Numbered from the stretch's first letter, positions 1-64,000 are shown. The stretch is DNA of 64,000 nucleotides from an uncultured Acidobacteriota bacterium (GCA_963785755.1 CAWAXG010000002.1:625128-689127), one strand, 5' to 3'. Numbers and translations: made by a program. The notes: generated by a model not told the origin, from the letters alone.

Positions 1-15
1 AGCTACGCAGCTAAG

Positions 16-900
16 GTGAAGGGCTACCACGACATCGTCGGCGACGGGGGATCCAGAATCCTCGAGCAGGTTGTTGAGCAGCGTACCCGCATAACTGACG
101 GGCTCGCCGGGGTGCGCCATCTCGTGGCCGTGGGCTCCGGCAAGGGGGGCGTCGGCAAGAGCACCTTGACGCTGCATCTCGCGGGCGCTCTGCGTGCCCG
201 GGGGCTTCGAATTGCGATCCTGGACGCGGACTTCAACGGCCCCTCACAGGCGCGTATGGCCGGTGTCCAGGGAGCGCTGTTCGTTCCAGGCAGCCACAAA
301 GTCGCGCTCCCGCGGACCACGAACGGGATCGGGGTCTTCTCGATGGGCTCGATGATCCCCGAGTCGGAGGCGCTCGATTTCGAGAGCGCGGCGCGCGGCG
401 AGTCGCATACGTGGCGCGCCACGAGAGAGTTCGCCCTCCTCGGCGAGATCCTCGGGTCGTTCGAATGGGGATCGCTCGATCTGCTGATGTTCGATCTGCC
501 GCCTGGAGCCGAGCGGACCGTTCAGTACGCCGAGTTTCTCGGCCCGAGGACGTCCTTCGTGCTCGTGACGATCCCTTCTGAAGTGGCACGGGGCGTCGTC
601 GCGCGCTCGGTGGCCGCCCTGTCGAAAGGGCCCAATCGCCTGCTGGGTTACGTCGAGAACATGAGCGGCTATTACTGTCGCGACTGCAACGCGATCAAGC
701 CGCTGTTCGCGTCCGACGCCCCATCGCCGCTGGAAATCCCTTGCTTCGGAACCGTTCCCTTCGATCCCGAGCTCGCGCGCCATTGCGACCGCGGAATTCC
801 GTTCACCGAACTGCGCGACAGCCCAGTGGGCCGGTCCTTCGACCAGATCGCGCAACGACTGCTTGACGGCCTCGAATCGTCACCGGAGTCCAGCCGATGA
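16..900 (+). CDS. Mrp/NBP35 (ApbC-like) P-loop iron-sulfur cluster carrier ATPase
   Basis: Walker A GSGKGGVGKST. Mrp signature ENMSGYYCRDCNAIKPLF with a CxxC motif. The frame is open to the window edge, so the true 5' end may lie upstream. ATGA overlap with the next gene. Confidence 0.85.
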   Translation: MKGYHDIVGDGGSRILEQVVEQRTRITDGLAGVRHLVAVGSGKGGVGKSTLTLHLAGALRARGLRIAILDADFNGPSQARMAGVQGALFVPGSHKVALPRTTNGIGVFSMGSMIPESEALDFESAARGESHTWRATREFALLGEILGSFEWGSLDLLMFDLPPGAERTVQYAEFLGPRTSFVLVTIPSEVARGVVARSVAALSKGPNRLLGYVENMSGYYCRDCNAIKPLFASDAPSPLEIPCFGTVPFDPELARHCDRGIPFTELRDSPVGRSFDQIAQRLLDGLESSPESSR

Positions 901-1334
901 AGTTCCTGTGTGTCCCTTGCGACAGCCCGATGAAGCTGCAGACCATCGGCCCGCCCGAGGGTGGCTCGCTCTCCGTCGTCTACTCCTGTCCCGAGTGCGG
1001 CTACGAGATGGCGATGCTGACCAATCCGTACGAGACACAGGTCGTCCAGTCACTCGGCGTGCGGATCGGTCCCGACACGGGGGCAAGCACCTCTGCTACC
1101 AGCTCCGGCTGCCCGTTCACCGCGATGATGCCTGGGATGGAAGGCGCACGGGCGGGAGGCGGTGAGCCAATCTCGGTCCGGTGGACGTCCGCCGCCGAAG
1201 CGAGGCTCGCGAACATTCCCGAGTTCGTGCGCCCGATGGCGCGGACCGGCATCGAGAAATTCGCCCGGGAAAGAGGGGTCCTTGAAGTCGACGAGAAGAT
1301 CCTCGATGAAGCCCGCGACTTCTTCGGCATGTGA
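897..1334 (+). CDS. Zinc-ribbon protein with C-terminal PCP_red (BchB/ChlB C-terminal-like) domain
   Basis: N-terminal CxxC...CxxC (CVPCDSP...CPECGYE). The C-terminal WTSAAEARLANIPEFVRPMARTGIEKFARERG matches the PF08369-type pattern. 4-nt overlaps with both neighbours. Confidence 0.7.
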   Translation: MKFLCVPCDSPMKLQTIGPPEGGSLSVVYSCPECGYEMAMLTNPYETQVVQSLGVRIGPDTGASTSATSSGCPFTAMMPGMEGARAGGGEPISVRWTSAAEARLANIPEFVRPMARTGIEKFARERGVLEVDEKILDEARDFFGM

Positions 1335-2771
1335 GCGGCGCCCTCGGCATGGACACGTTCACCCGCCCCTACGTTATCTCCTGGAACCTCACCTACCGCT
1401 GCAACCTCGCCTGCGAGCACTGCTATCTCGACGCCGGCGGCACGCCTCAGGTCGGCACGGAGAACTTCTCCGACCGGAGCGAGCTCGGCACCGAGGAATG
1501 CTTCAAGGTCATCGACGAAATCGCCGCGTTCGCGCCTGAATGCCTGACGATCCTGACGGGCGGCGAGCCGCTCCTGCGCCGCGACATCCTCGAGATCGTC
1601 CGGCGCGCGTCGGAGCGCGAGCTCTGGGTCGTCGTCGGCACCAACGGGGTGAGCATCACGGAGAACCTGGCGAAGCGCCTCGCGGACGCCGGCGCGCGGG
1701 GCCTCTCGCTCTCGCTCGATGCGCTCGATCCCGATCGTCACGACCGCTTCAGGATGGTGCGGGGCGCCTGGCGGAACACGGTGGAGGGAGCGGAGATCCT
1801 CAATCGGACCGGGCTGCCCTTCATCGTGCAGACGACCGCGGGCTCGCACAATCTCGGCGAGCTCGAGGCGATCGCCGACTTCGCGCACGAACGCCTCGCC
1901 GCCAGGGTCTGGAACCTCTACTTCCTGGTGCCGACGGGCCGCGGGCAGTACGTGTCGGACATCACTCCTGCCCAGTACCGATGAGGTTCTCGCCTCGCTC
2001 TACCGCATCCAGAGGAAGTACGACCGCCGGATGCTCGTGAACGCGAAGTGCGCGCCACACTACATCAAGACTGTTCTGGAGCAGGCGGGGACAGGCAACG
2101 GGGACAGGCAAGAGGGACAGGCAACCGGGACAGGCAACGGGGACAGCCAGCCGGGACAGGCAAGTCCCTCGTGGCCCGGTCTGTCCGCGATCAGGACCTA
2201 CTCCGGAGGGGCTGGCGGGTGCCCGGCGGGGACGCACTACATGGGGATACGGCCGAACGGTGATGTCACCCCGTGCCCCTACCTCCCGGTGTTTGCGGGG
2301 ACCCTTCGCAGCTCGAGCCTCGCGGACCTCTGGACGTCGTCGGAGCTCTTCGCCGGCATTCGCCGCCGAACCTCGCTCGGCGGCCGTTGCGGCGAGTGCG
2401 AGATGAACGGCCACTGTGGGGGCTGCCGCGCCCGCGCCTACGGGATGACCGGCGATCTGATGGCTGAAGACCCGCTCTGCACCCACACCCCCGGCACGTT
2501 CGCCGGGTCTCCCCTTCTTGCCATCCGTGGCCGGACGTCCGTCGCGGGCGCGCAGGGGCCTGCCACGATTCATTACGGCACCGAATCGGCAACGAGCATC
2601 GCCTGGGACGATGACGCCGCCGCGCGCATGAAGAAGATCCCCGCATTCGTCCGGGGCATGGTCGTCAGGGCCGTCGAGGAATCGTGCCGTAAGAACGGCC
2701 TCGACCGCGTGACCGTGGAGGAACTCGAACGAATCCGCGCGCGGATGCCGACGCCGAAGATGTTTGGGTAG
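1331..2771 (+). pseudogene. Radical SAM/SPASM protein with C-terminal PCP_red-like tail; frame disrupted as assembled (may be a sequencing error)
   Basis: N-part (ORF 1331..1984): YRCNLACEHC (CxxxCxxC) and GGEPLL. C-part (ORF 1719..2771, homology from about 1980): GGCPAG, TPCPY and CGECEMNGHCGGCRARA SPASM cysteines, then IPAFVRGMVVRAVEE. The frames rejoin if one C is removed at CAGTAC[C]GATGAG (about 1979). Confidence 0.8.
2088..2165 (+). repeat. 13-nt tandem repeat x6 (GGGACAGGCAASN) inside the rSAM coding region
   Basis: Units start at 2088, 2101, 2114, 2127, 2140 and 2153. The total of 78 nt is in frame and encodes GTGNGDRQEGQATGTGNGDSQPGQAS. Confidence 0.9.
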
Positions 2772-4478: not shown

Positions 4479-4615
4479 ACCTCCAGGACGGGCTGGGGAA
4501 GTCTACTGAAGTTCGACTGGTTGTAGTCGGCCCAGTCCCCGCCCAGGAATCTGAAGGGGTCGCGTACTGAGGGCGTGATCGCCCAATCGCGCGGTGTTGA
4601 CGACGCTGAATGGAC

Positions 4616-5421: not shown

Positions 5422-5738
5422 GATGTTCTAGGCCCCCTTTGGAGCTCCGACCATTCGGCATCGAGGTCGAGGTCGGCGATGCGCTTCGCGCGCCTGCGAA
5501 GATAGAGAAAAAAGCCCACAAACCCGCCCTGCACCGCAAGGGTGATGGCCAGCATCACCAGGACGCCGAGCTTCGCCCCGTCGATCAGCGGGGTCTCTTC
5601 CGCCCCGAAGCACACCGGGCAGGCGAGCACGCGGGCGCCGCCGGCGATCACCACGAACGCGGCGGTAATCAACGCCTGTCGCGCCGAAGCGAAGCGAAGG
5701 CGGGCCTGCCGCGCCGAAGCGAAGCGAAGGCGGGTCAT
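5418..5738 (-). CDS. Small membrane protein with CPVC motif (unknown function), oxidase-operon encoded
   Basis: Start MTRLRFASARQ at 5738, with an ATGA overlap to the upstream gene. Its stop overlaps the coxII ATG. Two predicted TM stretches and ACPVCFG. Confidence 0.55.
   Translation of the reverse strand: MTRLRFASARQARLRFASARQALITAAFVVIAGGARVLACPVCFGAEETPLIDGAKLGVLVMLAITLAVQGGFVGFFLYLRRRAKRIADLDLDAEWSELQRGPRTS
5675..5734 (-). repeat. 30-bp tandem duplication at the 5' end of the CPVC gene
   Basis: cctgtcgcgccgaagcgaagcgaaggcggg / cctgccgcgccgaagcgaagcgaaggcggg differ at one position. The pair encodes RLRFASARQA twice. Confidence 0.9.
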
Positions 5739-5935
5739 CGCAACGACCTCGTCTTGCGCAGGAACCACGAGTCGTAGACGACCAGGCCGATCGCCACGCC
5801 GAAAGCCGCGACCGCCGAGAACAGGCTTCCGACCCCGCCCTCCTCCCCGTAGATCCCCAGGCACCACACGCCGAACAGCACCGCGAGGGCCGCGGAGAGG
5901 AGGATCAGCGTTGCGTGGAACCACCTGAGGTTCAT
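5735..5935 (-). CDS. Small two-TM membrane protein (unknown function)
   Basis: MNLRWFHATLILLSAALAVLFGVW... Its ATG at 5935 overlaps the coxIV stop (ATGA). Hydrophobic. Confidence 0.5.
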   Translation of the reverse strand: MNLRWFHATLILLSAALAVLFGVWCLGIYGEEGGVGSLFSAVAAFGVAIGLVVYDSWFLRKTRSLR

Positions 5936-6237: not shown

Positions 6238-6246
6238 GGATGCTGC

Positions 6247-6837: not shown

Positions 6838-6842
6838 TTAGG

Positions 6843-9370: not shown

Positions 9371-9600
9371 CGCAAACCTCGCCTCCATCGTCACCTTGAC
9401 GCTAGCACCCGCGATCATTAAGTGGGGCGACTTTACACCGGGGCTTGCCGTCTGTGCAACCCTAGCACAGCCTTTTGAGTCGACGCTTCGCACTGGGAAT
9501 CGGCCCACGATCCGACTTCCGCCTTCGACAAAGGTTTCGCCTTCGCAATGGTAGGGGGCGAGCGGCCGTAGCCTTCGGCGGAGGCTGGCTGGCGGACAGG

Positions 9601-10941: not shown

Positions 10942-11565
10942 TCAGGACTCCACGAGCTCGACGGTGCGGGCGCCCAGGGATTCAAGCAGCTTGCCGGTGG
11001 CCGACGGATCGAACCGGGGATCCCAGGATTCGATCGAAATGAAGAAGGCGTCGTCGGTCACACGCTCGAAGACCTTGGATCGGAAGAGCGGATGGTAGTG
11101 CATGGGGAGCCGGTTGAGGCCGAACATGCCGAAGACGGCGCCGAGCGCGCCGAAAAGGACGGCGAGCTCGAAGGTAATCGGAATGAAGGCGGGCCAGGAG
11201 AAAAACGGTTTGCCGCTGATCACGAGGGGATAGGCGGTGGTGTGGACCCACCACTGCAGGACGAACCCGAGTGCGGCCCCCATCAGTCCCATGCCGAGGA
11301 CGATCCAGGGAAGCGGGGATCGCCGGAGCCCCATCGCTTTCTCGAGGCCGTGGACAGGGAACGGGCTGTGGGCATCCCACTTGGTGAAGCCCGCGTCACG
11401 CACCCGCTCGCACGCGTGATACAGGTCCGCAGGCGTCGCGAATTCGGCGAGGAGTCCGTAATAGGGCCCCTTCGGGAGCTGCGGGGAGAGCAACGGCATT
11501 GTCCTGAGCGAGCGACCTGTCCGCCATAGCGCGAAGCGCGAAGGCGGAAGCGAGTCGAAGGGCAT
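10942..11565 (-). CDS. actD: ACIII ActD-like protein (DUF3341)
   Basis: YGLLAEFATPADLYHACERVRDAGFTKWDAHSPFPVHGL ... FFISIESWDPRFD. The ATG at 11565 overlaps the actC stop (ATGA). An alternative start is 66 nt downstream. Confidence 0.8.
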   Translation of the reverse strand: MPFDSLPPSRFALWRTGRSLRTMPLLSPQLPKGPYYGLLAEFATPADLYHACERVRDAGFTKWDAHSPFPVHGLEKAMGLRRSPLPWIVLGMGLMGAALGFVLQWWVHTTAYPLVISGKPFFSWPAFIPITFELAVLFGALGAVFGMFGLNRLPMHYHPLFRSKVFERVTDDAFFISIESWDPRFDPSATGKLLESLGARTVELVES

Positions 11566-16477: not shown

Positions 16478-16578
16478 TACGAGCACGGAGCACGTGAGCA
16501 CAGCACGTAGCACATAGCAGGTGAGCACGTGGCACATGAGCACGTGAGCACGCAGGACGTCGCACCCAGCACGTAGAC
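16478..16578. repeat. Short-period array of (R)TGAGCAC / GTAGCAC units (array A)
   Basis: gagcacggagcacgtgagcacagcacgtagcacatagcaggtgagcacgtggcacatgagcacgtgagcacgcaggacg lies between the two permease genes. Confidence 0.85.
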
Positions 16579-16591: not shown

Positions 16592-17779
16592 ATGAACTGG
16601 CTGTCACAGACCCTCGCCGTCACCGCAGTAACACTGCGATCGATACCCCAGCGTCTCGGTTCGTCCATCGTCGCGGTCATCGGCATCGGCGGTGTGGTCA
16701 TCGTGGTCATATCCGTGCTCTCGATTGCCGAGGGGTTCCGCGCGGCGATGCGCGGCACCGGCGATCCTCAGACGGTGATCGTGATGCGATCAGGAAGCGA
16801 CACGGAGATGACCAGCACGTTCTCGGGAGAAGAGGCCAAACTCATCACCGAGGCGCCTGGTATCGAGCGGGCGGAAGATGGCGCGCATGCCTCGCCGGAG
16901 CTGTTCGTAATCATTGCCATTCCGCTCAGCCGAAGCGGCACCGATGCCAACGTTCCCCTGCGAGGGGTGCGGCCGGTCGCGCTCAAGGTGAGACCACAGA
17001 TAGAGATCATCGAGGGCCGCATGTTCAATCCGGGCACCTCGGAGATCGTCGTCGGCCGCGCCGCTTCGCGGCAGTTCAGCGGCGTCGGCGTGGGATCGAC
17101 CGTGCGATCGGGCAAGACGTCGTGGCAGGTCGTCGGGATCTTCGACGCCGGCGGCAGCGTCGCCGAATCCGAGTTGTGGTGCGATTCCAGCGTGCTGCAG
17201 GGCGCGTTTCAGCGCGGGAACTCCTACCAGTCGGTCTACCTGAGGCTCGAGACCGTCGACAGTCTGCAGAAGCTGAAGGACGCGCTCACCACGGATCCGC
17301 GGCTCAGCGTCACCGTCGTTCGTGAGCCGGACTACTACGCGGAACAGTCTCAAGTACTTCAGAGCGTCATTCGTACGGTCGGCATGGCCATCGGCATCCT
17401 GATGGGAGTGGGTGCGGTCTTCGGTGCCGTGAACACGATGTACTCGGCGGTCGCGGCACGCACCAGAGAGATCGCGACGCTGCGCGCGCTCGGCTTCGGC
17501 GCCATGCCGGTGGTCCTCTCAGTGCTCGGAGAAGCGCTCTTGTTGAGCCTCGTCGGCGGCACACTCGGGGGGCTGCTTGCCTGGGCGGCGTTCGATGGGT
17601 ACCAGACCGCCACCATGAACTGGCAGTCGTTCAGTCAGGTCGCGTTCTCGTTCGCGGTGACCCCGGAGCTGCTGGTGCGGGGACTGATCTACGCCTCCCT
17701 GATGGGGCTACTCGGTGGCCTGCTGCCTGCGATCCGCGCCGCCCGCCTTCCGGTCGTGACGGCTCTGCGCCAGCTCTAA
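16592..17779 (+). CDS. ABC transporter permease (FtsX/MacB_PCD type)
   Basis: 395-aa intact ORF. N-terminal TM, periplasmic domain and C-terminal FtsX helices (REIATLRALGFGAMPV...). Confidence 0.9.
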   Translation: MNWLSQTLAVTAVTLRSIPQRLGSSIVAVIGIGGVVIVVISVLSIAEGFRAAMRGTGDPQTVIVMRSGSDTEMTSTFSGEEAKLITEAPGIERAEDGAHASPELFVIIAIPLSRSGTDANVPLRGVRPVALKVRPQIEIIEGRMFNPGTSEIVVGRAASRQFSGVGVGSTVRSGKTSWQVVGIFDAGGSVAESELWCDSSVLQGAFQRGNSYQSVYLRLETVDSLQKLKDALTTDPRLSVTVVREPDYYAEQSQVLQSVIRTVGMAIGILMGVGAVFGAVNTMYSAVAARTREIATLRALGFGAMPVVLSVLGEALLLSLVGGTLGGLLAWAAFDGYQTATMNWQSFSQVAFSFAVTPELLVRGLIYASLMGLLGGLLPAIRAARLPVVTALRQL

Positions 17780-17799
17780 AGGCCGCTGTCCACAAAGAC

Positions 17800-18135
17800 G
17801 GGGCACCGGCCGGTCAACGGTGGTCCCACGTCTCGGAAGTCATTCATTTTCATACAATTATAAGGATCGTGTAATACCGTAGAGCTTATGTATTGATTTC
17901 AGACGGGCGAGAGCGAGGAAAGTACACTTTCCGGCTGAAGTCTGCGTCTTTCGCCAGGACTGTCCGCCACGAACGGTTCGGCTAACTCAAAGTTGGATAA
18001 CCACTTACCCTCCACTATCGGCCGGAGACGCCCAGAACTTCAGCGCAGAATCTCTCGGGGTACGACAGTTGCACTTAAGGGTGCACACAGCAAGACCAGC
18101 AGTCGGTGCAGGAAACTAGTAAAGGGAGGAATCCC
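17800..18135. other. AT-richer non-coding island upstream of a small ORF
   Basis: The only visibly low-GC stretch in the window (e.g. cattcattttcatacaattataaggatcgtgtaataccgtagagcttatgtattgatttc). No convincing ORF. It contains sigma70-like hexamers TTCATA-17nt-TAATAC. Confidence 0.4.
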
Positions 18136-18384
18136 ATGCTCATCGATGAAGTGCTCCAGAGAATACAAGGGGAATTCGTCGAGATGCCTGGGCTCCGACT
18201 GACCGCCCCACAGGCACAGCGTCTGTGGGGATTGGAGCGCGACCTTTGTGATGCGCTGCTTGGTGCCCTCGTGGATGCCAAGTTCTTGTCTCAAACGCGA
18301 GACGGAGCGTTTGTCCGCCAGGACGGCGCCCTGCCAACGCGGATTACGAACGGTCGGCGCGGTCATTCGTTGGCTGTCGCCTAG
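18136..18384 (+). CDS. Small hypothetical protein (82 aa), possibly winged-helix-like
   Basis: An AAGGGAGG Shine-Dalgarno sequence lies 6 nt before the ATG at 18136. MLIDEVLQRIQGEFVEMPGLRLTAPQAQRLWGLERDLCDALLGALVDAKFL. No family recognised with certainty. Confidence 0.5.
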   Translation: MLIDEVLQRIQGEFVEMPGLRLTAPQAQRLWGLERDLCDALLGALVDAKFLSQTRDGAFVRQDGALPTRITNGRRGHSLAVA

Positions 18385-18523: not shown

Positions 18524-18540
18524 CATCACTCCTCTACCAA

Positions 18541-18640
18541 CGTGCTCCGTCCTGCGTGCTGGGTGCTCACGTGCTCCGCGTGCTACGTGCTCACGTGCTC
18601 ACGTGCCTTTCGGGCTACGTGCTCACGTGCTCACGTGCTC
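18541..18640. repeat. Short-period array of GTGCTCAC / GTGCTAC units (array B, reverse orientation of array A)
   Basis: cgtgctccgtcctgcgtgctgggtgctcacgtgctccgcgtgctacgtgctcacgtgctcacgtgcc...gctacgtgctcacgtgctcacgtgctc. Confidence 0.85.
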
Positions 18641-18659: not shown

Positions 18660-19130
18660 TCAGGCCGTCCCGAGCGCGCTGAGCGCGTTCAGGCACTCCT
18701 CGTTGTTCGGTTGTTCCGGAATGTCGTAGGTCCGCACCCAGGCGATCTTCCCCTGCTTGTCGACGATGAAAATCGCGCGCTCGGAGAATCCTTCCTTCTG
18801 GCGAAACACGCCGTACTTCTGCGCGACTTCTCCGTGCGGGTGGAAATCGCTCAGCAGATCGAATGAGATCGATCCGAGAGTTTTCGCCCAGGCCGTCTTC
18901 GACGGCTGAGGATCGATGCTGATGCCGAGCACGACGGCATCACGTTCGTTGAGCCGATTGAGATCGAGCTCATATCCCGACATCTGCGTGGCGCACACCG
19001 GCGTGAATGCCAGCGGGTGAAACGCGAGCACGACGTTCTTCTTCCCTCGATAATCCGACAACCGTACGGTCCCGCCTCGATGGCTGCGAAGCTCGAAGTC
19101 CGGAGCTTCGTCGCCTGTTTTCAACGCCAT
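18660..19130 (-). CDS. Peroxiredoxin (AhpC/TSA, Bcp/AhpE-like)
   Basis: [17 protein letters not shown] peroxidatic Cys context. 156 aa. Confidence 0.9.
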
Positions 19131-29597: not shown

Positions 29598-29676
29598 TTG
29601 AACCTTGAACCTTTGAACCTTTGAACTTTTTGAACCCGAACCCCTGAACCCGTGAACCCTTGAACTCCTGAACCTT
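29598..29676. repeat. Short-period array of TTGAACC-type units (array E)
   Basis: ttgaaccttgaacctttgaacctttgaactttttgaacccgaacccctgaacccgtgaacccttgaactcctgaacc lies directly upstream of the pmbA-like gene. Confidence 0.9.
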
Positions 29677-31054: not shown

Positions 31055-31300
31055 CGTGCTGCGTGCTGTGTGCTACGTGCTCACGTGCTCTTCGTGCGAC
31101 GTGCGACGTGCGACGTGCCAACATGCGACGTGCGATGTGCCAACGTGCCCGGCCGTGCTACGTGCGGCGGCGCCAAGCACGTTCGCACGTTGCACCTAGC
31201 ACGTTCGCACGTGGCACGTAGCACGTACCACGTGGCACGTGAGCATGTAGCACAAAGCACGGAAAGCACATGAGCACGCAGCACATGGCACGCAGCACGT
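31055..31300. repeat. ~245-bp imperfect palindrome built of GTGCNAC / GNTGCAC heptamers (array C)
   Basis: The left arm is GTGC-oriented (gtgctacgtgctcacgtgc..gtgcgacgtgcgacgtgcgac..). The right arm is GCAC-oriented (..gcacgttcgcacgtggcacgtagcacg..). The centre is near 31165-31175. Mirror ORFs 31070..31273(+) and 31081..31284(-) both begin MLRAHVL. Confidence 0.9.
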
Positions 31301-31315
31301 AATCAGAGGCCACCA

Positions 31316-32990: not shown

Positions 32991-33072
32991 ACAAGTACGA
33001 AGTGACCGGTGATAAGGCGCAAGTAACAAGGCGCAACGTAGACGTTCCGTTGTACTTGCGCCTTGCAACTTG

Positions 33073-35844: not shown

Positions 35845-35900
35845 CGGGATCGGTGATCGGTGATCAGGGATCGGGTCTGGGGACTACGGACTAGGGTCTC
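35845..35900. repeat. Short-period array GGGATCGGT/GATCAGG plus GGACTA units (array G)
   Basis: gggatcggtgatcggtgatcagggatcgggtctggggactacggactagggtctc lies between the rhodanese and sufE genes. Confidence 0.85.
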
Positions 35901-36426: not shown

Positions 36427-36765
36427 ATGGGTCTCACGAATCAGCCGCCCGATCTGCTGCCAGGAACGCTCGACATGCTCATCCTGCGCACGCTCAGCCG
36501 CGGCGCGCTGCACGGCTACGGCATCGCCGAACGGATTCGCCTGGTCTCGGACGATGTGCTCCAGGTCGGCGAGAGCTCGCTGTACCCGGCGCTGCAGCGG
36601 CTGCTCCTCAACGGCTGGGTCACGGCCGAATGGGGCGCCTCTGACAACAACCGCCGCGCGCGCTACTACACGGTCACCGCGGACGGTCGCAAGCGGCTCA
36701 CGTCGGAGCGCAAGGAATTCCAGCGCCTGATCGGAGCCATTCAGCAGGTCCTCGAATCCGCCTGA
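36427..36765 (+). CDS. PadR-family transcriptional regulator
   Basis: LLPGTLDMLILRTLSRGALHGYGIAERI...LYPALQRLLLNGWV. Confidence 0.9.
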   Translation: MGLTNQPPDLLPGTLDMLILRTLSRGALHGYGIAERIRLVSDDVLQVGESSLYPALQRLLLNGWVTAEWGASDNNRRARYYTVTADGRKRLTSERKEFQRLIGAIQQVLESA

Positions 36766-38907: not shown

Positions 38908-38960
38908 GTTCAAAGGTTCAAGGGTCCAAGGGTTCAAGGTTCACTGATTCGAGGGTTCAG
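38907..38960. repeat. Short-period array of GGTTCAA-type units (array F, reverse of array E)
   Basis: agttcaaaggttcaagggtccaagggttcaaggttcactgattcgagggttcag. Confidence 0.85.
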
Positions 38961-43882: not shown

Positions 43883-44055
43883 CTCGCGGATTTCTTGCCT
43901 CTCTTTCACGAGACGCGGATCACCGCCGACCTTTCACGAGTTGCGGATCGCCGCGGATTCTCCTGGGGCACGAGCCGCGGATTCGCGCGGAGGCACGGAT
44001 CAATTCCTGAGTCACGAGTCGCGGATTTGACGGGATCACGCGGATCGCGCGGGGC
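43883..44055. repeat. Array of ~25-35-nt units containing CACGAG-NN-GCGGAT (array I)
   Basis: tcacgagacgcggatc, tcacgagttgcggatc, gcacgagccgcggattc, tcacgagtcgcggattt and tcacgcggatc. Confidence 0.85.
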
Positions 44056-44778: not shown

Positions 44779-45323
44779 TGGAGCTGACCGGTCAGCGCTG
44801 CACCCTTCGGCGCTGGCGAGCCTCGGATGCCGCCGCAATCGTGCGCCGGGCCAACAACCTGAAGATCGCGAGTCAGCTGCGCGATCGCTTTCCCCATCCC
44901 TATACAGCACGCGACGCCAGGACCTTCATCCGGCACGTGATGCAGCCGGACTCGGACGCGACCAACCTGGCGATCGAGGTCGATGGCGAGGCGGCGGGCG
45001 CGGTGGGCATGATCCAGGGAAAGGACATCGAACGCTACTCGGCCGAGATCGGCTATTGGCTGGCCGAGGACTACTGGGGCCGCGGCATCGCCGCGGAAGC
45101 CGTCACAATGCTGACCGACTACGCGTTCGGTGGTCTGAATCTCCTGCGGCTCTTCGCGTTGCCGTTCGCCAGCAACATCCAGTCAACGCGTGTACTCGAA
45201 AAGGCCGGCTACGTCCGGGAAGGCGTCCTGCACGCGAGCGCCGTGAAGCACGGCGAGCCGCGCGATCAGGTGCTGTATGCGCGCGTGAATGGAGCGTGGG
45301 CGTCGCCAATCCGCGACTCGTGA
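44778..45323 (+). CDS. GNAT-family N-acetyltransferase (RimJ/RimL-like)
   Basis: IGYWLAEDYWGRGIAAEAV...VLEKAGYVREG. Confidence 0.9.
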   Translation: MELTGQRCTLRRWRASDAAAIVRRANNLKIASQLRDRFPHPYTARDARTFIRHVMQPDSDATNLAIEVDGEAAGAVGMIQGKDIERYSAEIGYWLAEDYWGRGIAAEAVTMLTDYAFGGLNLLRLFALPFASNIQSTRVLEKAGYVREGVLHASAVKHGEPRDQVLYARVNGAWASPIRDS

Positions 45324-45341
45324 AGAATCCGCAACTCGTGA
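45308..45341. repeat. Two AATCCGC-N-ACTCGTGA units (array J, reverse of array I)
   Basis: 45308-45323 (aatccgcgactcgtga) is the exact reverse complement of 44012-44027 (tcacgagtcgcggatt). Confidence 0.9.
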
Positions 45342-45379
45342 CCAGGCGCTGATCAACCGCCGCGCTCAGCGCCCGACGG

Positions 45380-47795
45380 TCACTCGTTCCTGATCGCGAC
45401 GATTGGATCGACCGCCATCGCGCGCCGGGCCGGAACGTAGCTGGCCGCGGTCGCGATACACGCCAGGAAGATCGAGACGACGGTGAAGCTGAGGGGATCG
45501 GTGGGCGTGACGTTGTACAGCACCGAGCGGACCGCCGGCGTGACGAAGGCGGCGCCGATCATCCCGATGACGATGCCGATGGTCGCGAGCTTGAGACCCT
45601 GGCCGACGATCAGCCGCATGACGTCGCGGCGCGCGGCGCCGAGCGCCACCCGGACGCCGATCTCCTGCGTCCGCTGCGAGACCGAGTACCGACAACACGC
45701 CGTAGACGCCAATCGCTGCGAGCACCAGCGCAATCACGCCAAACAGGAAGAACATGATCCCGAACAGGCGGTACTGCCAGAAGCTTCGCTGCCTCAGGTT
45801 CTCCATGGTCGAGATCTGGAAAACGGGAAGAGCGGGATCCGAGAGCCGGAACTGCTCCCGCACCGCCGCGGTGATCGACGCGGGATCGCCCGCGACACGC
45901 AGCGTCAGGCCCGTGTTCAGCGCGGGCTCGAATGTGTAGGGCACGTAGGCCGAGGGAAAGACCGTCTGATCGTTGTCCCCCTGGAAGTGCCTGAAGTCCG
46001 CAACGACGCCGACGACCATGAACCAGTCCGGCTGCGCGTCCCCCTTGAGCCGGAACCGCCGGCCGATCGGATCGTCGTCGCCCCACAACTGTTTCGCCAT
46101 CGTTTGATTGACGAGGGCGACCGCGGTCTTCGACGTGTTTTCGGTGTCGGTGAAGTCGCGGCCGCGCACGAGCGCCAGGCCGAGCGTCTCGCGGATGTGC
46201 GGCGTGGTCGCGATGAAGCCGATGTTCCGTTCCTGGCCAGGTTCGACCGGCTTCCCGTCGACGAGCACATCGCCTCCGCCGCCGCCCCCGCCGAGCGGCA
46301 CGAAGTTCGACGCGAACGCCTTCTGCACACCGGGCAGACCCTCGACGCGGCGCAGCAGATCTTCGACCCGTCGCGCCTTCGCGTCGGCCGACTCGTACGC
46401 TTCACCCGGCAGGTAGAAGCGCAGCGTCATGAGCGGCGCGGGGTCGAATCCCACGCGGGCGCGCTGCAGATTCAGGAAGCTGCGGACGAACAGCGACGAC
46501 CCGATCAGCAGAATCACCGCGAGCGCGACCTGCGCCACCACGAGTCCGTTGCGCAGCCACGCGCGGCGTTCGCCGGCCGAACCGCGGCCGCCCTCCCTGA
46601 GGCTCTCCTGGAGGCTGGTTCCCGTCGCCTGCAATGCTGGCGCGGCGCCAAAGACGATGCCGGTTGCCAGCGAGATGGCGACGGCGTACAGGAGCGACCG
46701 CCCATCGAGTGACCAATGGATGAAGTACGGGATGCTGTCGGGCGGAATCGAGCCATCGAGAAGCGCGAGCCCGCCTTTGGCCACGAGCATGCCCAGCGGC
46801 ACGCTGAACAGACCGATCAGCATCGACTCGGTCAGCAGCTGGCGGATGATGCGCACCCGCCCGGCCCCGAGCGCGGCGCGGATCGAAATCTCGCGATGAC
46901 GGACCGACGCGCGAGCGAGCAGCAGGTTCGCGACGTTGGAACAGGCCACGAACAGTACCAGTGTCACGGCGCCCATCATCGAGAGGATGATCAGCTTCGG
47001 CTCGTCGGGAAGCATCCAGTCCTTGAGCGGACGGATGCCCAGGCCCCAGTCTCGATTGAGGGTCGGGTAGGCGGACGCGAGGCGTCCGGCGACCGAGGTC
47101 AGATCCGCTGATGCCTGCTCTTCGGAGATGCCTGGTTTCAACCGCGCGAACACTTGCAGGTTCCGGGCGTTCCGGACGGTCTTTTCGCCGTAGGGCGCGA
47201 GCGTCACCCACAGGCGCGTGGTCTCGGGGAATGCGAATCGCTGCGGCATCACGCCGATCACCGTGTGCGGACGACCGTTGACTGAGATCGCGCGCCCGAC
47301 GAGCGAGCGATCGCCGTTATACCGGTTCTGCCACACTTCGTGGCTCAACATCACCACCGGTTCGGCCCCCGGCCGATCGTCCTCCGGACCGAAGTTGCGG
47401 CCCAGGACGGGCGGCGTGCCCAGGACCTCGAACAGGTTCCAGCTCACCGTCTGCCCGATGTAGCGCTCGGGCTCGGAAGTACCGTCCGAGATTGTCAGGC
47501 TGCGTCCGGTGAATGCCGCCACGGCGCTCAGGGTGGAGGTCTGTTCCCTGAGGTCCTTGAAGTCCGCGTATGAAATACCGCCGCGCCGCACGCCGACGCG
47601 CTGGTTGACTGAATTCAGCACGATGAGGCGGTCGGGCTCGGAGTAGGGATACGGCTTGAGAAGAACGCCGTCAACGACACTGAAAATTGATGTGTTTATG
47701 CCGATGCCGAGCGACAGGCAGCTCACCGCAATGGCTGTAAACCCTGGGGTCTTGGTGAGCGAACGCCAGGCATACCGGATATCTTGAAGCAGCAT
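45380..47795 (-). pseudogene. ADOP/MacB-like ABC permease; one frame disruption as assembled
   Basis: ORF 45366..47795 carries everything up to ..GVYGVLS. ORF 45380..45733 continues YSVSQRTQEIGVRVALGA...VAIRNE*. There is an extra base inside + strand AGTAC[C]GA (45685-45692). Confidence 0.85.
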
Positions 47796-48803: not shown

Positions 48804-48859
48804 TTCACAGGGAGGACGGGAGGGACGTCGAAAACTTTTCCTCCCGTCCTCCTTGTGAA
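48804..48859. terminator. ~20-bp-stem hairpin between convergent genes (candidate bidirectional terminator; member of a repeat family)
   Basis: ttcacagggaggacgggagg - gacgtcgaaaactttt - cctcccgtcctccttgtgaa. Confidence 0.55.
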
Positions 48860-48903
48860 AGAAGGTCCTCCCTGTGCAAAGAAACAGAACTCCCGTCCTC
48901 GTA

Positions 48904-51436: not shown

Positions 51437-51532
51437 CCTGACCGAGCCCACCTGATCCCCTGATCCCCGATCCCGAAGACACGCCCGAGCCCCGAGTCCC
51501 GAGTCCCGAGCAGTCCCGAATCCCGAGTCCCG
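51437..51532. repeat. Short-period array CCTGATCCC/CCGATCCC plus CCCGAGT units (array H, reverse of array G)
   Basis: cctgaccgagcccacctgatcccctgatccccgatcccgaag...cccgagccccgagtcccgagtcccgagcagtcccgaatcccgagtcccg lies in a divergent intergenic region. Confidence 0.85.
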
Positions 51533-54069: not shown

Positions 54070-54096
54070 GTCAGGGAGTGACCAGGTGTGAGCCCT

Positions 54097-54126
54097 TGGG
54101 AGTTGGAGGTTGGGAGTTGGAGTTCT
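54097..54126. repeat. GGGAGTTGGAG-type short repeat (array K)
   Basis: ttgggagttggaggttgggagttggagttc. Reverse copies lie at 55171-55185 and 55277-55295, and a forward copy at 55381-55399. Confidence 0.8.
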
Positions 54127-54192
54127 CACTGCTGCGTTTCTCGGCACCCTGTTAAGTCCAGACTCCCGTCCTCCCTTCCTCCCTGTGAATAA

Positions 54193-55113
54193 TCACGGCT
54201 TGCCCCGAATCACGCTCCGCGTCCTCACGGTCACTCCCTTCCTCAACACCTTCACTTCGATCTCGCGAAGGTCGGCGCTGCGCTGGACGGGCGGGTTCGC
54301 GATCCCGAGCATGTAGTAGCTCCCCGTTTCGCGCCAGATCCGATCGGCCGGGCCGCGAAAATCATTCGTGTTCATGAACGCATGGCCGCCGGTCTCGCGC
54401 GCGAATCCGTTCTCGCCGCCGAAGTATCCGGTCGGGCCGGCGCCCAGGCCGGCGGGATCGATCACGTAGAGCGTCGTATACGCCGAGCCCATCGCGCGCA
54501 TCGCTGAGACCCACAACGGACCGAGATCGCGCTGGCCCGGCGGCGGCAGTGGCGTGTCGAACAGCCAGCCGGCGCCGATCGCGACGATCGTCTTGCGTCG
54601 ATCGGAGACCTCGGTCAGCTGGCGCGTGATGTCGGTCACCATCTGCAGCACATGTTCACCTGCATCCTCGATGCGAAACGGGAATGGCTGCGGGTTGTAG
54701 CTGTCGATGGCGCGCCGCAGCTGCATTCGATCGTCGGTGAGCTGCATCACACCGCCATTGAGCGGGACGATCGCCATCCGGTCGCCGGGCGCCAGCCGAT
54801 CGACCAGCAGCCGCGCCGCTTCCCTCACCCTGGGCACGAGCACCGGAGGAACCGACGCGTTGTCGAGAATCACCACCACAGTACGGCTGAGACCGCTCTC
54901 GGGTGTGACCGCGACGACGTCGGTGATCGGAATGCGATAGCCGCTGATCCAGACCTCGAACTCCTTCGGCGTCAGGTCGGTCACCGGCGCATCGTGACGC
55001 CCTTCCGTGGTGACGTCGATCCACAACTCGGCTCGCGCGGGCGGCGCAGGAGTCCGCGGCTGAGACTGCGCGGCGATCGTGCTGAGCGCAACGGCGAAGA
55101 GCAAGCTGTGCAT
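54193..55113 (-). CDS. VWA domain protein (acidobacterial TIGR03436-like)
   Basis: Start MHSLLFAVALS (55113). LTPKEFEVWISGYRIPI...VVVILDNAS...DRMAIVPLNG. Confidence 0.75.
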   Translation of the reverse strand: MHSLLFAVALSTIAAQSQPRTPAPPARAELWIDVTTEGRHDAPVTDLTPKEFEVWISGYRIPITDVVAVTPESGLSRTVVVILDNASVPPVLVPRVREAARLLVDRLAPGDRMAIVPLNGGVMQLTDDRMQLRRAIDSYNPQPFPFRIEDAGEHVLQMVTDITRQLTEVSDRRKTIVAIGAGWLFDTPLPPPGQRDLGPLWVSAMRAMGSAYTTLYVIDPAGLGAGPTGYFGGENGFARETGGHAFMNTNDFRGPADRIWRETGSYYMLGIANPPVQRSADLREIEVKVLRKGVTVRTRSVIRGKP

Positions 55114-55276
55114 TGGAGTGAATCCGGTAATCGAGCAGGGCTGGCTACCGGCGAGTCTACTGCAACTCGTCAACTCCCAACCTCCCCGCCGTCGCGCGCA
55201 GAAAGTCGACGCGCGCTCTGGCGAGGCCTCGCCGGAGCTTGTCGCTCGCGTCTGGAGTGCGACAAGCGAAGGCGGG

Positions 55277-55399
55277 CAACTTCCAACTCCCAAAGGCGCA
55301 CCGCTCGTACCGATCTGGCTGAAAGCCGATGCAATGGGGCAGGCCGTTGCGACTTTCACCCGGCTGCGTCGAACCGATCGCTTTGGGAGTTGGAGTTTG
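55277..55399. repeat. Inverted repeat (19-nt arms, 85-nt spacer) in a 297-bp intergenic region
   Basis: caacttccaactcccaaag (55277-55295) vs ctttgggagttggagtttg (55381-55399). 14 contiguous complementary bases. Confidence 0.8.
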
Positions 55400-55410
55400 A
55401 CAGCGTCAGC

Positions 55411-57017: not shown

Positions 57018-57088
57018 TCGAATGACTGGCAGACGCACTCGGATACTATTGCTCAACGGCACGTCACACACACGTCTCCCTTCCAATC

Positions 57089-57759: not shown

Positions 57760-57810
57760 AGGGCAAGGGGCAAGGACAACGGCAGGAACAAAGAGGCGAC
57801 TTGGTACTGG

Positions 57811-60025: not shown

Positions 60026-60035
60026 GGGGTTATGT

Positions 60036-60250
60036 TACGTGCTTTCGTCCGTGTGCTACGTGCTCGGTGCTGGTGCTGGGTGCTACGGTGCCTGCGTGCG
60101 GAGGGCGAACGTGGAGGCGACGGGCGACGAGCGGTGCCGCGCGCGATGCTTCCCAGCCGTCAGCTGGAGAACGCAGCAGTAGCACGGAGCACTGAGCACG
60201 GAGCACGCAGCACCGCACGTGAGCACGTAGCACGCAGGACGTAGCACTGA
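60036..60250. repeat. Split inverted array of GTGCT... / ...AGCAC heptamers (array D) in a divergent promoter region
   Basis: Left arm, about 60036-60101: tacgtgctttcgtccgtgtgctacgtgctcggtgctggtgctgggtgctacggtgcctgcgtgc. Right arm, about 60172-60250: agcagtagcacggagcactgagcacggagcacgcagcaccgcacgtgagcacgtagcacgcaggacgtagcac. Confidence 0.85.
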
Positions 60251-60261
60251 GAGAATATCCG

Positions 60262-60882
60262 ATGCTGTTGGCCGAAGTCGAAACAAAGCTGCGGCTGCGG
60301 CTGGCCGGGACTCTTCCCGGCGTGGAGGCGCAGGTCCGGTTCGCACCGGTTCCCGGCGCGAAGGGCTGGCGGGCGGGTGAGTTTCCGGCCGATGCCCGCA
60401 CGGCGGCGGCGCTGCTGCTGATTTATCCGGGGGACTACGGCGTCGCGATTCCGCTGACGGTGCGTGCCAGCACGCTGGCGCGTCATGCCGGCCAGATCAG
60501 CCTTCCCGGCGGCGCCACCGATCCAGGTGAAACGCTCGCGCAGGCGGCGCTGCGCGAAGCCTCCGAAGAGATCGGCATCGATCCCGCCTCGGTTCGGGTG
60601 CTGGGAGAACTGACGCCGGTCCACGTCCTCGTCAGCGGCTTCACGTTGCATCCGGTGGTCGGGGTGACCGATGATCGGCCGCCGTTTCAGGCCGCGCCGG
60701 GCGAGGTGGACGAAATCCTCGAGGTGCGTCTCGAGGATCTCCGCGATGCTTCACGCATCCGCACGGGGACGCACGTGCGCGAAGGCGTCGCCATCGAATA
60801 TCCCTACTTCGATCTCTCGGGCCATCGCGTCTGGGGCGCCACGGCGATGGTGCTCGGGGAGTTCATCACCCTCTTTGGCTGA
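60262..60882 (+). CDS. NUDIX hydrolase (CoA pyrophosphatase-like)
   Basis: Nudix box LPGGATDPGETLAQAALREASEEIGI. Confidence 0.9.
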   Translation: MLLAEVETKLRLRLAGTLPGVEAQVRFAPVPGAKGWRAGEFPADARTAAALLLIYPGDYGVAIPLTVRASTLARHAGQISLPGGATDPGETLAQAALREASEEIGIDPASVRVLGELTPVHVLVSGFTLHPVVGVTDDRPPFQAAPGEVDEILEVRLEDLRDASRIRTGTHVREGVAIEYPYFDLSGHRVWGATAMVLGEFITLFG

Positions 60883-60994
60883 AGCCGGGCGGTTCTCGCG
60901 TCACGACGGCTGTGAACGGCAGGCCGACTTCCCTCCCTCGTCGTCGAAAGAGAAGTCGCTGGATTCGCCTTACGTGACGGCTCCGCATCTCGTG

Positions 60995-61396
60995 ATGACC
61001 CGGACATACTTTCCTCTCGCGATCGCACTGACCGGATCGCTGACACTTGCCGGCTGCGGGCTGGCCATGCCGGCCCCAATCGTTCTCGAAGGTCAGACGT
61101 TTCCACAGGTGCGAGCAGCTGAAATCCGAACCGGAATGTCGCCGCGCGAAGTCGAGGCACTTCTTGGAACGCCTCTCACCCGAGCGGTTTCGTCGCATGG
61201 CGAGACCTGGACGTACCGCTACATGCAACGAAGGAAAGAATGCCGGATGGTTGTGCTTGGCATTCAGCTCGGGCGCTTCCCTGCGGACACGCACCATGTC
61301 GAGGTGGTCTTCGATAATGGCCGCGTCGAGCGTGGTGTCTACCGGCACCATGCATCCGAAGGGCGTTCGGAGCAGGTCATCGTGACGTCACGGTAA
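60995..61396 (+). CDS. Lipoprotein, BamE/SmpA_OmlA-like (tentative)
   Basis: Lipobox LTLAGCG. GMSPREVEALLGTPL resembles the SmpA/OmlA core. Confidence 0.55.
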   Translation: MTRTYFPLAIALTGSLTLAGCGLAMPAPIVLEGQTFPQVRAAEIRTGMSPREVEALLGTPLTRAVSSHGETWTYRYMQRRKECRMVVLGIQLGRFPADTHHVEVVFDNGRVERGVYRHHASEGRSEQVIVTSR

Positions 61397-61603
61397 ATCC
61401 TTCTGGTGGCTCAGTCGTGACGGGTCCTCGGAGTTCAGTCTGTCCCAGTCCCGATGCTTGTGCTTGACGCCGACGATCGGCACGAAGCGCACCACGAGCA
61501 TGACCAGCCACCAGATCACGTACAGCGCGGCGGCATGGATCGCCAGGAGCCCGGCGATCATCGCGAAGCCTGCCGCGAGCTGAAGGATGGTTCGCAGAGT
61601 CAC
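61388..61603 (-). CDS. Small two-TM hypothetical protein
   Basis: 71-aa hydrophobic ORF. No homology recognised. Weak call. Confidence 0.35.
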   Translation of the reverse strand: MTLRTILQLAAGFAMIAGLLAIHAAALYVIWWLVMLVVRFVPIVGVKHKHRDWDRLNSEDPSRLSHQKDLP

Positions 61604-61624
61604 TGCCTCCGTACAGTCGCGCGA

Positions 61625-62965: not shown

Positions 62966-63007
62966 CGGCACAGAATAGCAGGCCAGATTGCTGATTGGCG
63001 TTTCACG

Positions 63008-63645
63008 ATGACCGGACTCGTTCCTCTCGATCGGGCGCTGTCCAAGGTTGGCGCGGGCCACCGCGATCCGAAGCGCGCGCGTGATCGCGCTGGACGGGTC
63101 CGCGTGGGCGGGCGGATCGTCCGCGATCCGGCGCGTCTGGTGCAGCCGGAGCGCGCTCACCTGCTGGTGGACGGCCCACGGTGTTCGACGTCCTCGGGGC
63201 CGAGGCGAGCCGGCTGGTCGCCGTCGGACGGCTCGATCGCGGAACGGGCGGTCTCCTGATCCTGACCACAGACACCCAGCTGGCGAACCGGCTCACGGAT
63301 CCCGCATCAGGGTTCATCCGGCGCTATCTCGTCACGGTACGGGGAGCGCTCTCAGACGAGTCCGCGGCAGGGATGACCGCTGGGATTGACGGGCTTCGGG
63401 CGGTGGCGGTGCGCGTCCGGAAGCGGTCGTCGCGTGAAACTCATCTGATCGTCGAGCTGGATGAAGGACGGAATCGGGAGATCCGCCGGCTGTGCGAGGC
63501 GGTCGGCCATGAGGTCACGGCGCTGAAGCGCGTGGCGTTTGGCGGCCTCGAGCTCGGCGACCTGCAGCCCGGCCGCTGGCGCGAGGTGTCGCGCCAGGAG
63601 ATCAGGCGGGCTTTCGGGCCGGCGACCTGGACGGCGCGCCGTTGA
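63008..63645 (+). pseudogene. RluB/RsuA-family pseudouridine synthase; deletion and frame disruptions as assembled
   Basis: S4-like N-terminus (LDRALSKVG...GRVRVGGRIVRDP...LLVDG) in ORF 63008... The catalytic core RPTVFDVLG..VGRLDRGTGGLLILTTD is in ORF 63181..63645. The ~25-30 aa normally between VDG and RPTVFD are absent. Confidence 0.75.
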
Positions 63646-63702
63646 TAGAATTGGGATTTTGGGGCCGTCCGATGGCCGCCGACAAGCGCGAAAGGCTTTC
63701 AC

Positions 63703-64000
63703 ATGAATCCACGTGTCGTCGAAGCAATCAACCGGCAGATCAACTCCGAGCTGAGCGCGTCCTATTCGTACCTCGGCATGTCCGCCTGGTGCGAGCGCCA
63801 GAAGCTCACCGGCGCGGCACGCTGGCTGCGCCTGCAGAGCCAGGAAGAGTACATGCACGCGATGAAGCTGTTCGACTTCGTGCTGGCGCGGGACATGGAC
63901 GTCGATCTGCGCGCCATCGAGCCGGCGCAGCTGCCGTTCAAATCGCTCCTCGACGTCTTCGAGCGCGCGCTCGAGCAGGAACAGGAAGTGACGCGCCAGA
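63703..64000 (+). CDS. Ferritin (non-heme), 3' end outside window
   Basis: MNPRVVEAINRQINSELSASYSYLGMSAWCE...QEEYMHAMKLFDF ferroxidase-centre pattern. Confidence 0.85.
   Translation, partial: MNPRVVEAINRQINSELSASYSYLGMSAWCERQKLTGAARWLRLQSQEEYMHAMKLFDFVLARDMDVDLRAIEPAQLPFKSLLDVFERALEQEQEVTRQ

Follow-up and report, generated by a model that had tools for sequence, protein, structure and literature searches.

The question raised by this locus is what generates the arrays of short tandem repeats that lie between its genes, and whether they serve the cell. The locus is a stretch of 64,000 nt from an uncultured soil bacterium of the Acidobacteriota (GCA_963785755.1 CAWAXG010000002.1:625128-689127), here called the window; guaB and other genes place it in the Vicinamibacterales (Acidobacteriota), and its best match among GTDB species representatives has 87% amino-acid identity. 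Our answer, which we hold to be probable, is that the arrays are long simple sequence repeats (SSRs) of a known heptamer class, generated by slippage as a genome-wide mutational property of the Vicinamibacterales, and partly co-opted as hairpins.

Arrays were identified using Tandem Repeats Finder (TRF), throughout with a period of 5-40, at least three copies and a score of at least 40; the source genome was covered over the 64 kb of the window, and each relative over about 21 kb. TRF and direct reading of the sequence found arrays of 7-8-nt units at essentially all of the coordinates given in an earlier annotation made from the sequence alone (the sequence-only reading). The window contains 15 arrays, six of period 7 and five of period 8, compared with 0-1 in each of ten dinucleotide-preserving shuffles (mean about 0.2). 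With the same criterion, 50-kb controls from E. coli and S. meliloti pSymB contained none, and one from a Ralstonia megaplasmid (69% GC) contained three, none of them of period 7-8. The arrays are thus real features of the DNA and lie where that reading placed them, as do longer-unit families in both orientations (CACGAGNNGCGGAT, TTCACAGGGAGGACGGGAGG and GGGAGTTGGAG). Its description of their extent was too strong. We curated the window spacers by correcting gene starts with the relatives' gene calls, giving 35 spacers and 4,789 bp. Strict tandem arrays make up 20% of this DNA, and any repeated-unit sequence, counted liberally, 32%, so that intergenic DNA is not "largely made of" repeats. Nor does "nearly every" spacer above about 50 bp contain an array: among the 29 spacers of at least 50 nt, 10 contain a strict array and 19 contain repeated units of any kind. 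A tRNA scan of the window found nothing, and Rfam gave 0 matches there at the gathering threshold.

The same analysis was applied to 80 related loci (1.42 Mb), taken from metagenome-assembled genomes (MAGs) from many projects. Nearly every related locus of useful length carries arrays, at about 2 per 10 kb (approximately 2.3), a density similar to that in the window. The arrays are therefore not confined to the window and are a property of the whole order Vicinamibacterales. The 308 arrays from the window and the related loci comprise 140 of period 7, 50 of period 8, 26 of period 9 and 23 of period 14. In the base autocorrelation of non-coding DNA, lag 7 gives the top peak outside multiples of three and has harmonics at 14, 21 and 28, whereas coding DNA shows the 3-nt signal alone. 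The share of DNA occupied by arrays is 5.7% outside coding sequence and 0.13% within it, a 44-fold difference. Genes in the related loci were called with a simple codon-usage caller, for which stops are exact and starts approximate, and some of the "non-coding" DNA consists of genes that the caller missed. As the sequence-only reading had stated, arrays are found in all three kinds of spacer, co-directional, convergent and divergent; they peak in convergent spacers of 100-199 nt, 42% of which have an array. A metagenome scan for (GTGCTCAC)2.5 returned 93 contigs of very mixed GC, with no conspecific strain among them. These show the GTGCTCAC unit to be widespread, and include soil contigs that mix CGTGCGA with GTGCTCAC as the window does.

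A search with the pmbA protein identified conspecific contigs: L174 (ENA, farmland), L175, L176 and L177 (three Joint Genome Institute (JGI) metagenomes), and L187 (ENA ERZ25039531; 810,926 bp). Independent ENA and JGI assemblies, from short and from long reads, carry the same arrays at the same positions, and L175, L176 and L177, from three separate metagenomes, share one identical haplotype, which is evidence against assembly noise. Over about 20 kb, L174 and L175 share 97-98% identity with the window, and within this region all indels of 8 nt or more fall in arrays, the remaining indels being of 1-6 nt. The TTGAACC(C/T) array that stops 9 nt short of the pmbA start (29598..29676, plus strand) has a 15-nt indel, corresponding to two units, between L174/L175 and the window; it has 10 units in the window and 7 or 8 in conspecific strains. 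The arrays at 31055-31301, in the spacer between pmbA and tldD, have indels of 8, 36, 13, 29 and 9 nt, and the spacer is 277, 236 or 190 nt long depending on the strain, the differences between L174 and L175 being confined to one arm. In L187, whose pmbA is 99.6% identical to that of the window (5 of 1353 positions differ), the TTGAACC array has 7 units against 10, and 30 of 247 columns of the pmbA-tldD arrays show a difference, a divergence roughly 30-fold that of the adjacent gene. The comparison of copy number in orthologous spacers, which the sequence-only reading had proposed, thus finds gain and loss of whole units at array positions.

The units are diverse. There are 89 canonical heptamers among the 140 period-7 arrays (81 genomes), and at least seven unrelated families in the window. 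Single-linkage clustering of the heptamers merged all units and was uninformative. Each genome has dozens of unrelated units, and orthologous spacers of related species carry different ones: the spacer upstream of guaB has an array in about one-third of species, with a different unit in each. The frequency at this site is close to background for a spacer of that size, and we therefore dropped it as evidence of function. Within a locus, about 30% of same-period array pairs share their unit, compared with 4.5% between loci. The description of the arrays as locus-specific is only half true: ACGTGC(G/T) recurs across genomes. What copies of one family have in common across loci is the unit only; their loops and flanks are unrelated and their array lengths vary, which excludes that a defined element has transposed.

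The claim that families recur in inverted orientation likewise applies to part of the data. There are 63 adjacent array pairs (gap of at most 200 nt). The period is shared in 39 of them, and 27 of the 39 are inverted copies of the same unit, which is highly non-random. All recurrences together give 48 inverted-only and 21 direct-only pairs; when the 27 adjacent pairs are subtracted from the inverted ones, the distant recurrences are split about evenly (~21 direct and ~21 inverted).

Adjacent inverted pairs are predicted to fold into near-complete hairpins of 100-300 nt. One example is the quasi-palindromic pair in the pmbA-tldD spacer, with a left arm of CGTGCTN / CGTGCGA units (31055..31148, plus strand) and a right arm of AGCACGT / TCGCACG units, inverted relative to the left (31169..31301, plus strand). 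It has a predicted energy of -170 kcal/mol over 273 nt (z -10.5), and the predicted hairpin persists in strains whose arms have changed. The divergent guaB/NUDIX spacer (236 nt, -134 kcal/mol, z -6.7) pairs an array of GTGCT(A/C/G)N units adjoining the start of guaB, which is on the minus strand (array 60036..60091, plus strand), with an inverted array of about 12 (G)GAGCAC(G) units (60166..60251, plus strand). In L186 the corresponding spacer is 320 nt long (-251 kcal/mol, z -17.8), and its central "promoter" part is swapped for a different 15-mer array. The divergent order of these genes in the window is common to most relatives.

Structure depends on context. Single arrays are no more structured than shuffles (fold z +0.3 to +1.3), and the median fold z of array-bearing spacers is -3.9 for convergent spacers (62% below -2), -0.2 for co-directional and +0.07 for divergent ones. 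In convergent spacers the array nearest the stop codon tends to be G-rich on the sense strand (33:16 for single and 10:2 for paired arrays), so that a transcript from either direction would carry a hairpin with a G-rich 5′ arm. Array-free spacers have no significant bias. The convergent spacers at 28000-64000 of the window fold significantly better than shuffles, whereas sites combining a hairpin with a U-tract are no commoner than in shuffles over the same region, none of them being intergenic and none at an array. Measured against intrinsic terminators, the inverted arrays of convergent spacers supply the GC-rich downstream hairpin and lack the U-tract. This suggests that a subset of inverted arrays at convergent ends may be retained as 3′-end hairpins. 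We also considered selection against Rho-loading C-rich arrays in operons and rejected it, because G-richness is confined to convergent spacers.

At the other end of genes, the motif TANNNT peaks at -12 to -14 from the start codon and is present in about 12% of those genes whose upstream spacer is at least 60 nt, against a background of 0.5%. The consensus over the window and the 80 related loci is TAnnAT, with almost no -35 signal; examples in the window are at 60032-60037 (guaB) and 60248-60253 (NUDIX). Many Vicinamibacterales genes are thus probably leaderless, and since the -35 signal is negligible, the DNA upstream of the -10 box would be largely unconstrained. Arrays often reach a -10-like box, as they do at guaB (TAACAT, at -12), at NUDIX (GAGAAT) and in many relatives, and leaderless-like genes have an array within 120 nt more often than other genes (25/102 vs 111/766, p 0.013). 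With respect to transcription, arrays have no bias of G/C or A/T between strands, whether they lie in co-directional spacers (43:43) or near starts (42:47). The idea that array units act as -35 boxes was rejected, since leaderless promoters show almost no -35 consensus. Orientation counts for GCAC arrays upstream of starts of 54:8, and then 44:12 with arrays masked, were inflated by redundant strains and by an artefact of the gene caller, suspected because GTG codons within arrays let open reading frames (ORFs) extend through them. Public annotations show related effects, with calls that run through an array to a start codon further upstream: SufE in L174 (10554-11102) is called as 182 aa vs about 140, and NUDIX in L181 and L186 as 212 aa vs 206 in the window. 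Because GTGC-type arrays lack stop codons on one strand, arrays mislead gene callers systematically. Set beside phase-variation loci, in which the copy number of an SSR switches a specific gene on or off, typically a surface or restriction gene, copy number here varies between strains next to housekeeping genes such as guaB, pmbA/tldD and NUDIX.

One array listed as intergenic in the sequence-only reading (2088-2165; 2086..2163 by TRF, plus strand) proved to be coding. It comprises six copies of the 13-nt unit CGGGGACAGGCAA, 78 nt in all, within the gene for an AhbD-like radical SAM/SPASM protein. Both the Radical_SAM domain (1331-1984) and the SPASM/PCP_red domains (~2220 to 2771) are parts of this one protein, and every close homologue is a single chain of 461-546 aa; the window has an extra C in "cagtaCCgatgag" near 1970 (1969-1971), which breaks the reading frame. 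The array encodes the inter-domain linker AGTGNGDRQEGQATGTGNGDSQPGQAS, and stays in frame because of its length of 78 nt. Length differences among orthologues fall mostly in this linker, which is the sole hypervariable and length-variable segment, and one orthologue has a 13-aa tandem duplication there. A second frameshift occurs in tldD (31316-32990), which has a 1-nt insertion in a C-run at 31861 relative to L174 and L175, where the gene is intact and encodes 557 aa. These comparisons suggest that both frameshifts are homopolymer errors of long-read assembly and that the genes are not pseudogenes. tldD also contains a GCG-rich 9/18-nt repeat (31567-31625), encoding a Gly/Arg-rich low-complexity insert of the same length in the three strains compared.

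We propose the following explanation. The arrays would be microsatellite- to minisatellite-like, with a strongly preferred unit of 7 nt, followed by 8, 9 and 14 nt. Replication slippage would add and remove whole units, and template switching or fold-back would create and re-homogenise adjacent inverted arms, each of which would then slip independently. Because 7 is not a multiple of three and because such loops escape mismatch repair, arrays would survive only in unconstrained DNA: downstream from a stop codon, as far as the -10 box of a leaderless gene, and in frame in tolerant protein linkers. Selection would do no more than remove arrays where they are harmful. At convergent ends most arrays are inverted pairs predicted to form long hairpins; these, with their G-rich 5′ arm, would most likely serve as transcription-end or RNA-stabilising hairpins without a U-tract. 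Slippage is preferred as the generator because change occurs in place and by whole units, because arrays diverge so extremely compared with their flanks, because they are restricted to unconstrained DNA, because the array in the coding linker survives with a length divisible by three, and because there is no strand bias. The mechanism of slippage with template switching, like any role in termination or promoter tuning, is inferred from the sequence.

Several points weigh against this explanation. Local slippage alone does not explain the recurrence of units within a genome (~30% vs 4.5%, above), and the preference for period 7 is unexplained. So too are the recurrence of some units across species and the orientation preference of the ACGTGC family. 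ACGTGC(G/T) is found in 8 of the 81 sampled genomes, where by our estimate about 0.1 would be expected by chance. The orientation of this family upstream of starts is 22:8 in non-redundant counts (p ~0.02), which is suggestive only. The crude gene calls in the related loci make distances from start codons soft, and any terminating or stabilising effect of the array hairpins is putative.

The alternative that survives best is one that we nevertheless judge unlikely: that the arrays are primarily selected cis-elements, serving as U-tract-free terminators or RNase-protective 3′ hairpins and as tunable modulators of promoters or translation, with slippage adjusting them. The concentration of hairpin-forming arrays with a G-rich 5′ arm in convergent spacers, together with the absence of canonical terminators, is what such elements would give; however, most co-directional and divergent arrays are unstructured and have no strand bias, and inverted pairs are also found in divergent promoter spacers, where no single transcript holds both arms. 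Whole-spacer hairpins are kept in four strains while the content of the arms changes, but the two arms change copy number independently. Arrays abut -10-like boxes, and leaderless-like genes are enriched for them, yet in L186 the central "promoter" of the guaB/NUDIX spacer has been replaced by an unlike array. A role in translation has been proposed for the heptamers just upstream of starts in Beggiatoaceae (PMC4679880). That the neighbors of the arrays are housekeeping genes with no functional theme counts against selected elements. A wider and equally speculative proposal, which we put forward with considerable doubt, is that gene boundaries in the Vicinamibacterales are built from slippage-renewed heptamer arrays. 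Inverted neighbors with a G-rich 5′ arm might work in both directions as terminators or insulators lacking a U-tract, continually retuned through stem length. Arrays at the -10 box might set promoter context, inverted arrays might flip single genes by recombination, and families such as ACGTGC(G/T) might be under selection.

It is very improbable that the arrays are multimeric binding platforms, for a DNA regulator or nucleoid protein or for an RNA-binding protein of the S1, Csp or CsrA type contacting about 7 nt per unit, each family being a regulon. Families do recur within a genome and across species, and the retention of ACGTGC(G/T) upstream of both guaB and NUDIX in a species only about 80% identical, despite a local rearrangement, and the spacing of the CACGAGNNGCGGAT copies, which resembles that of operator sites, fit such a role. 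However, a genome with dozens of unrelated units, whose orthologous spacers differ in unit, is not what a regulon would predict, and both copy number and unit sequence drift between strains 97-99.6% identical. There is no overall strand bias, and the suggestive orientation bias of the ACGTGC family upstream of starts weakens from 44:12 to 22:8 once redundancy is removed.

We give little credence to an origin as remnants or copies of non-autonomous mobile elements, whether miniature inverted-repeat transposable elements (MITEs) or repetitive extragenic palindromic (REP) sequences and bacterial interspersed mosaic elements (BIMEs) moved by a REP-associated tyrosine transposase (RAYT). The arrays resemble the REP/BIME elements of Enterobacteria and Pseudomonas in being short intergenic repeats, often in inverted hairpin pairs at 3′ ends, with species-specific families dispersed in both orientations. 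They differ in that REP is a conserved, imperfect palindrome of 20-40 nt linked to RAYT, whereas here the units are tandem, non-palindromic, 7-8 nt long and variable in copy number. The families on TTCACAGGGAGGACGGGAGG, with a 20-nt unit and just 3 copies in the window, and on GGGAGTTGGAG are closer to REP in appearance than the heptamers are. Only the unit is common to the copies of a family, amid unrelated flanks and loops and with no terminal inverted repeats or target-site duplications, and strain differences are gains and losses of whole units in place. No transposase lies near the arrays in the window, and no RAYT was found among the genes scanned, which were those of the 64-kb window. 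The sequence-only reading was thus right that the heptamer arrays are not REP/BIME-like single palindromes and not obviously MITEs. It was right too that they are not CRISPR, the units being contiguous and 7-14 nt long rather than 23-47-nt repeats with unique spacers. Finally, the idea that the arrays are assembly or sequencing artefacts can be dismissed: at least two 1-nt frameshifts in C-runs of the window (~1970 and 31861) are typical of uncorrected long-read assemblies, but the arrays themselves recur at the same positions in four independent same-species assemblies, with one haplotype in L175-L177, and are about as dense in 80 MAGs drawn from many projects; they are therefore not artefacts.

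Are arrays of this kind new? The sequence-only reading knew of no described function for them, but the phenomenon itself has been described: over-represented intergenic heptameric SSRs are documented in several bacterial lineages (Rehm 2015, PMC4692102; MacGregor 2015, PMC4679880; Huang & Mrazek 2014, PMC4060949). The arrays share the head-to-tail tandem units of about 7 nt, the non-coding bias and the strain variation of this class. They do not have one or a few dominant units per genome, with at least seven families in 64 kb; this feature belongs to the named examples and not to class 7n3 in general. In Xanthomonas (GGGAATC) and Nostoc (GGGGA(C/T)T), heptamers lie in the same intergenic gaps in related species and vary in length and sequence (Rehm 2015, PMC4692102). 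No function has been found for them, and the polymerase-slippage rationale is attributed to Mrazek 2007 (PMC4692102). The likeness extends to tandem 7-nt units, a non-coding bias, positions near ORF ends, some convergent inverted pairs capable of stem-loop formation, the absence of a link to any gene class or demonstrated function, and the appeal to slippage. Those genomes have one dominant G-rich, G-quadruplex-prone unit, whereas here there are many families, most of them not prone to form G-quadruplexes. The density here is about 2.3 arrays per 10 kb, compared with 186 arrays in the whole Xanthomonas campestris pv. campestris genome, and the under-representation of the Xanthomonas repeats between divergent genes has no counterpart here.

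Heptamers of the cyanobacterial short tandemly repeated repetitive (STRR) type in Calothrix and Nostoc, reportedly described by Mazel in 1990 and cited in PMC4692102, are similar in being tandem, intergenic and present at many loci per genome with no known function; they differ in that each genome, from a low-GC filamentous cyanobacterium, has a few named units. Coincidentally, the relative L005 in our set uses CCCCAGT-type units. Direct repeats of TAACTGA occur just upstream of starts in Beggiatoaceae, cyanobacteria and Bacteroidetes (MacGregor 2015, PMC4679880). They too are mostly intergenic and often end a few nucleotides before the start, replacing the canonical ribosome-binding site (RBS), much as the TTGAACC array ends before pmbA. 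They consist of a single conserved heptamer, with 169 direct sets vs one indirect, whereas the arrays described here have many units and frequent inverted pairs. In the 2014 survey, class 7n3 alone among the long-unit SSRs had a positive median in several phyla, and was mainly intergenic (PMC4060949, Table 2). The Acidobacteria in that survey, represented by four genera with none from Vicinamibacteria, scored 0.00, meaning normally represented (PMC4060949), and the Vicinamibacterales are therefore a new and extreme case. Our literature search found no paper on such repeats in Vicinamibacteria. The arrays are thus a known kind of element, and what is new is the lineage, the density and the multiple families.

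The remaining arrays of the window illustrate the range of sites. An array of about 12 (G)AGCACGT units (16481..16574, plus strand) ends 17 nt upstream of a MacB/FtsX permease gene that starts at 16592, and as RNA is unstructured (fold z +0.3). Its family recurs in the opposite orientation as an array of about 12 GTGCTCAC units (18540..18640, plus strand), downstream of an AhpC/TSA peroxiredoxin gene (18660-19130, minus strand). Between the two arrays lies an array-free, AT-richer stretch of 356 nt (17780-18135), possibly foreign DNA, which precedes a small ORF (18136-18384; 82 aa) with a good RBS and no Pfam match. The TTGAACC family recurs reversed as 6.6 copies of GTTCAAGG (38908..38959, plus strand), between two MacB-like permease genes. 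The window has four MacB_PCD/FtsX permease genes (16592-17779, 36772-38907, 38964-41633 and 45366-47795), several of them bordered by arrays. Three of them have the long duplicated form typical of Acidobacteria, and a PadR regulator (36427-36765) directly precedes one pair.

Beyond tldD, the convergent-gene spacer contains a hairpin of duplicated AAGGCGCAAG units and their complement (32991..33072; fold z -2.5). At 32986-33085 the window has just this 82-nt hairpin spacer, where conspecifics have a 4.1-kb gene between tldD and the next gene (L175 13260-17390; L174 3686-7815). Its product, of 1284 aa, is TonB-dependent-receptor-like, with CarboxypepD_reg and an OMP beta-barrel, and the spacer downstream of it in L174 and L175 has a hairpin of AAGGAAC/AAGGAGC units. 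At 35845..35900 (plus strand), GGGATCGGT/GATCGGG units are followed by GGACTA(C/G) units in an array of GGGATCGG type, for which strain L174 has other unit counts. At 51437..51532 (plus strand), a divergent spacer has three copies of CCTGATCC followed by 6.6 copies of CCCGAGT, unstructured as RNA. A short array of the GGGCAAG type, with 2-4 degenerate units (57760..57796, plus strand), lies in a convergent spacer.

Longer units are found at several sites. Four copies of CACGAGNNGCGGAT, spaced 28-44 nt apart, occur with GCGGATC fragments upstream of a YgjP-like gene (43907..44052, plus strand; the four forward copies span 43907-44026), and two inverted copies (45309..45340, minus strand, at 45309 and 45327) lie at the end of a GNAT acetyltransferase gene and immediately beyond it. 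A hairpin of TTCACAGGGAGGACGGGAGG / CCTCCCGTCCTCCTTGTGAA, with more partial copies, occurs between convergent genes (48804..48900; fold z -5.6); GGAGGACGGGAG is found at 48811 and, reversed, at 48841 and 54163. The convergent spacer at 54096..54192 holds two copies of TTGGGAGTTGGAG and the complement of the GGGAGGACGGGAG family, and three dispersed copies of the GGGAGTTGGAG family lie at 55171..55399, of which 55171-55185 and 55277-55308 are inverted and 55383-55399 is direct. GGGAGTTGGAG itself is at 54098, 54112 and 55385, so the gene at 54193-55113 is flanked by family copies at 54096-54126 and 55171-55399; the inverted copies around it match over 32 nt at 81% and over 15 nt at 100%. A further dispersed motif family, on GCGAAGGCGG / CCGCCTTCGC, occurs at 5674-5734, 11528-11552, 9519-9560 and 55260-55275. 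It includes a 30-nt repeat in two copies (CGAAG pentamers) inside called ORFs of a cytochrome-oxidase cluster, and similar motifs are present in relatives L005 and L046.

Comparison of the window with a sister species (L182-L185, ~80% nucleotide identity) reveals two small in-place inversions. One involves a block of NUDIX and a small ORF (window 60209-61596, L182 9948-10822) and the other the gene at 54193-55113 (L182 15661-16523). The breakpoints of both lie in array-bearing spacers. Two readings are possible: that arrays mediate inversion, or that inversion splits an array and leaves its halves opposed.

An excess of intergenic heptamer tandem repeats in bacteria has been noted since 1990 and surveyed since 2007, with neither the preference for 7 nt nor the function explained, and the Vicinamibacterales are among the most abundant soil bacteria while being hardly cultured. 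The arrays have practical consequences: they mislead gene callers, as in the public calls of SufE and NUDIX, they serve as strain-typing markers, and they are likely sources of misassembly. They also make the Vicinamibacterales a useful system for this old problem, with a very high density of arrays, many families, and public metagenomes that show change between strains 97-99.6% identical. Comparing such strains can test how fast slippage proceeds, whether inverted arms evolve in concert, and how selection acts at gene boundaries.

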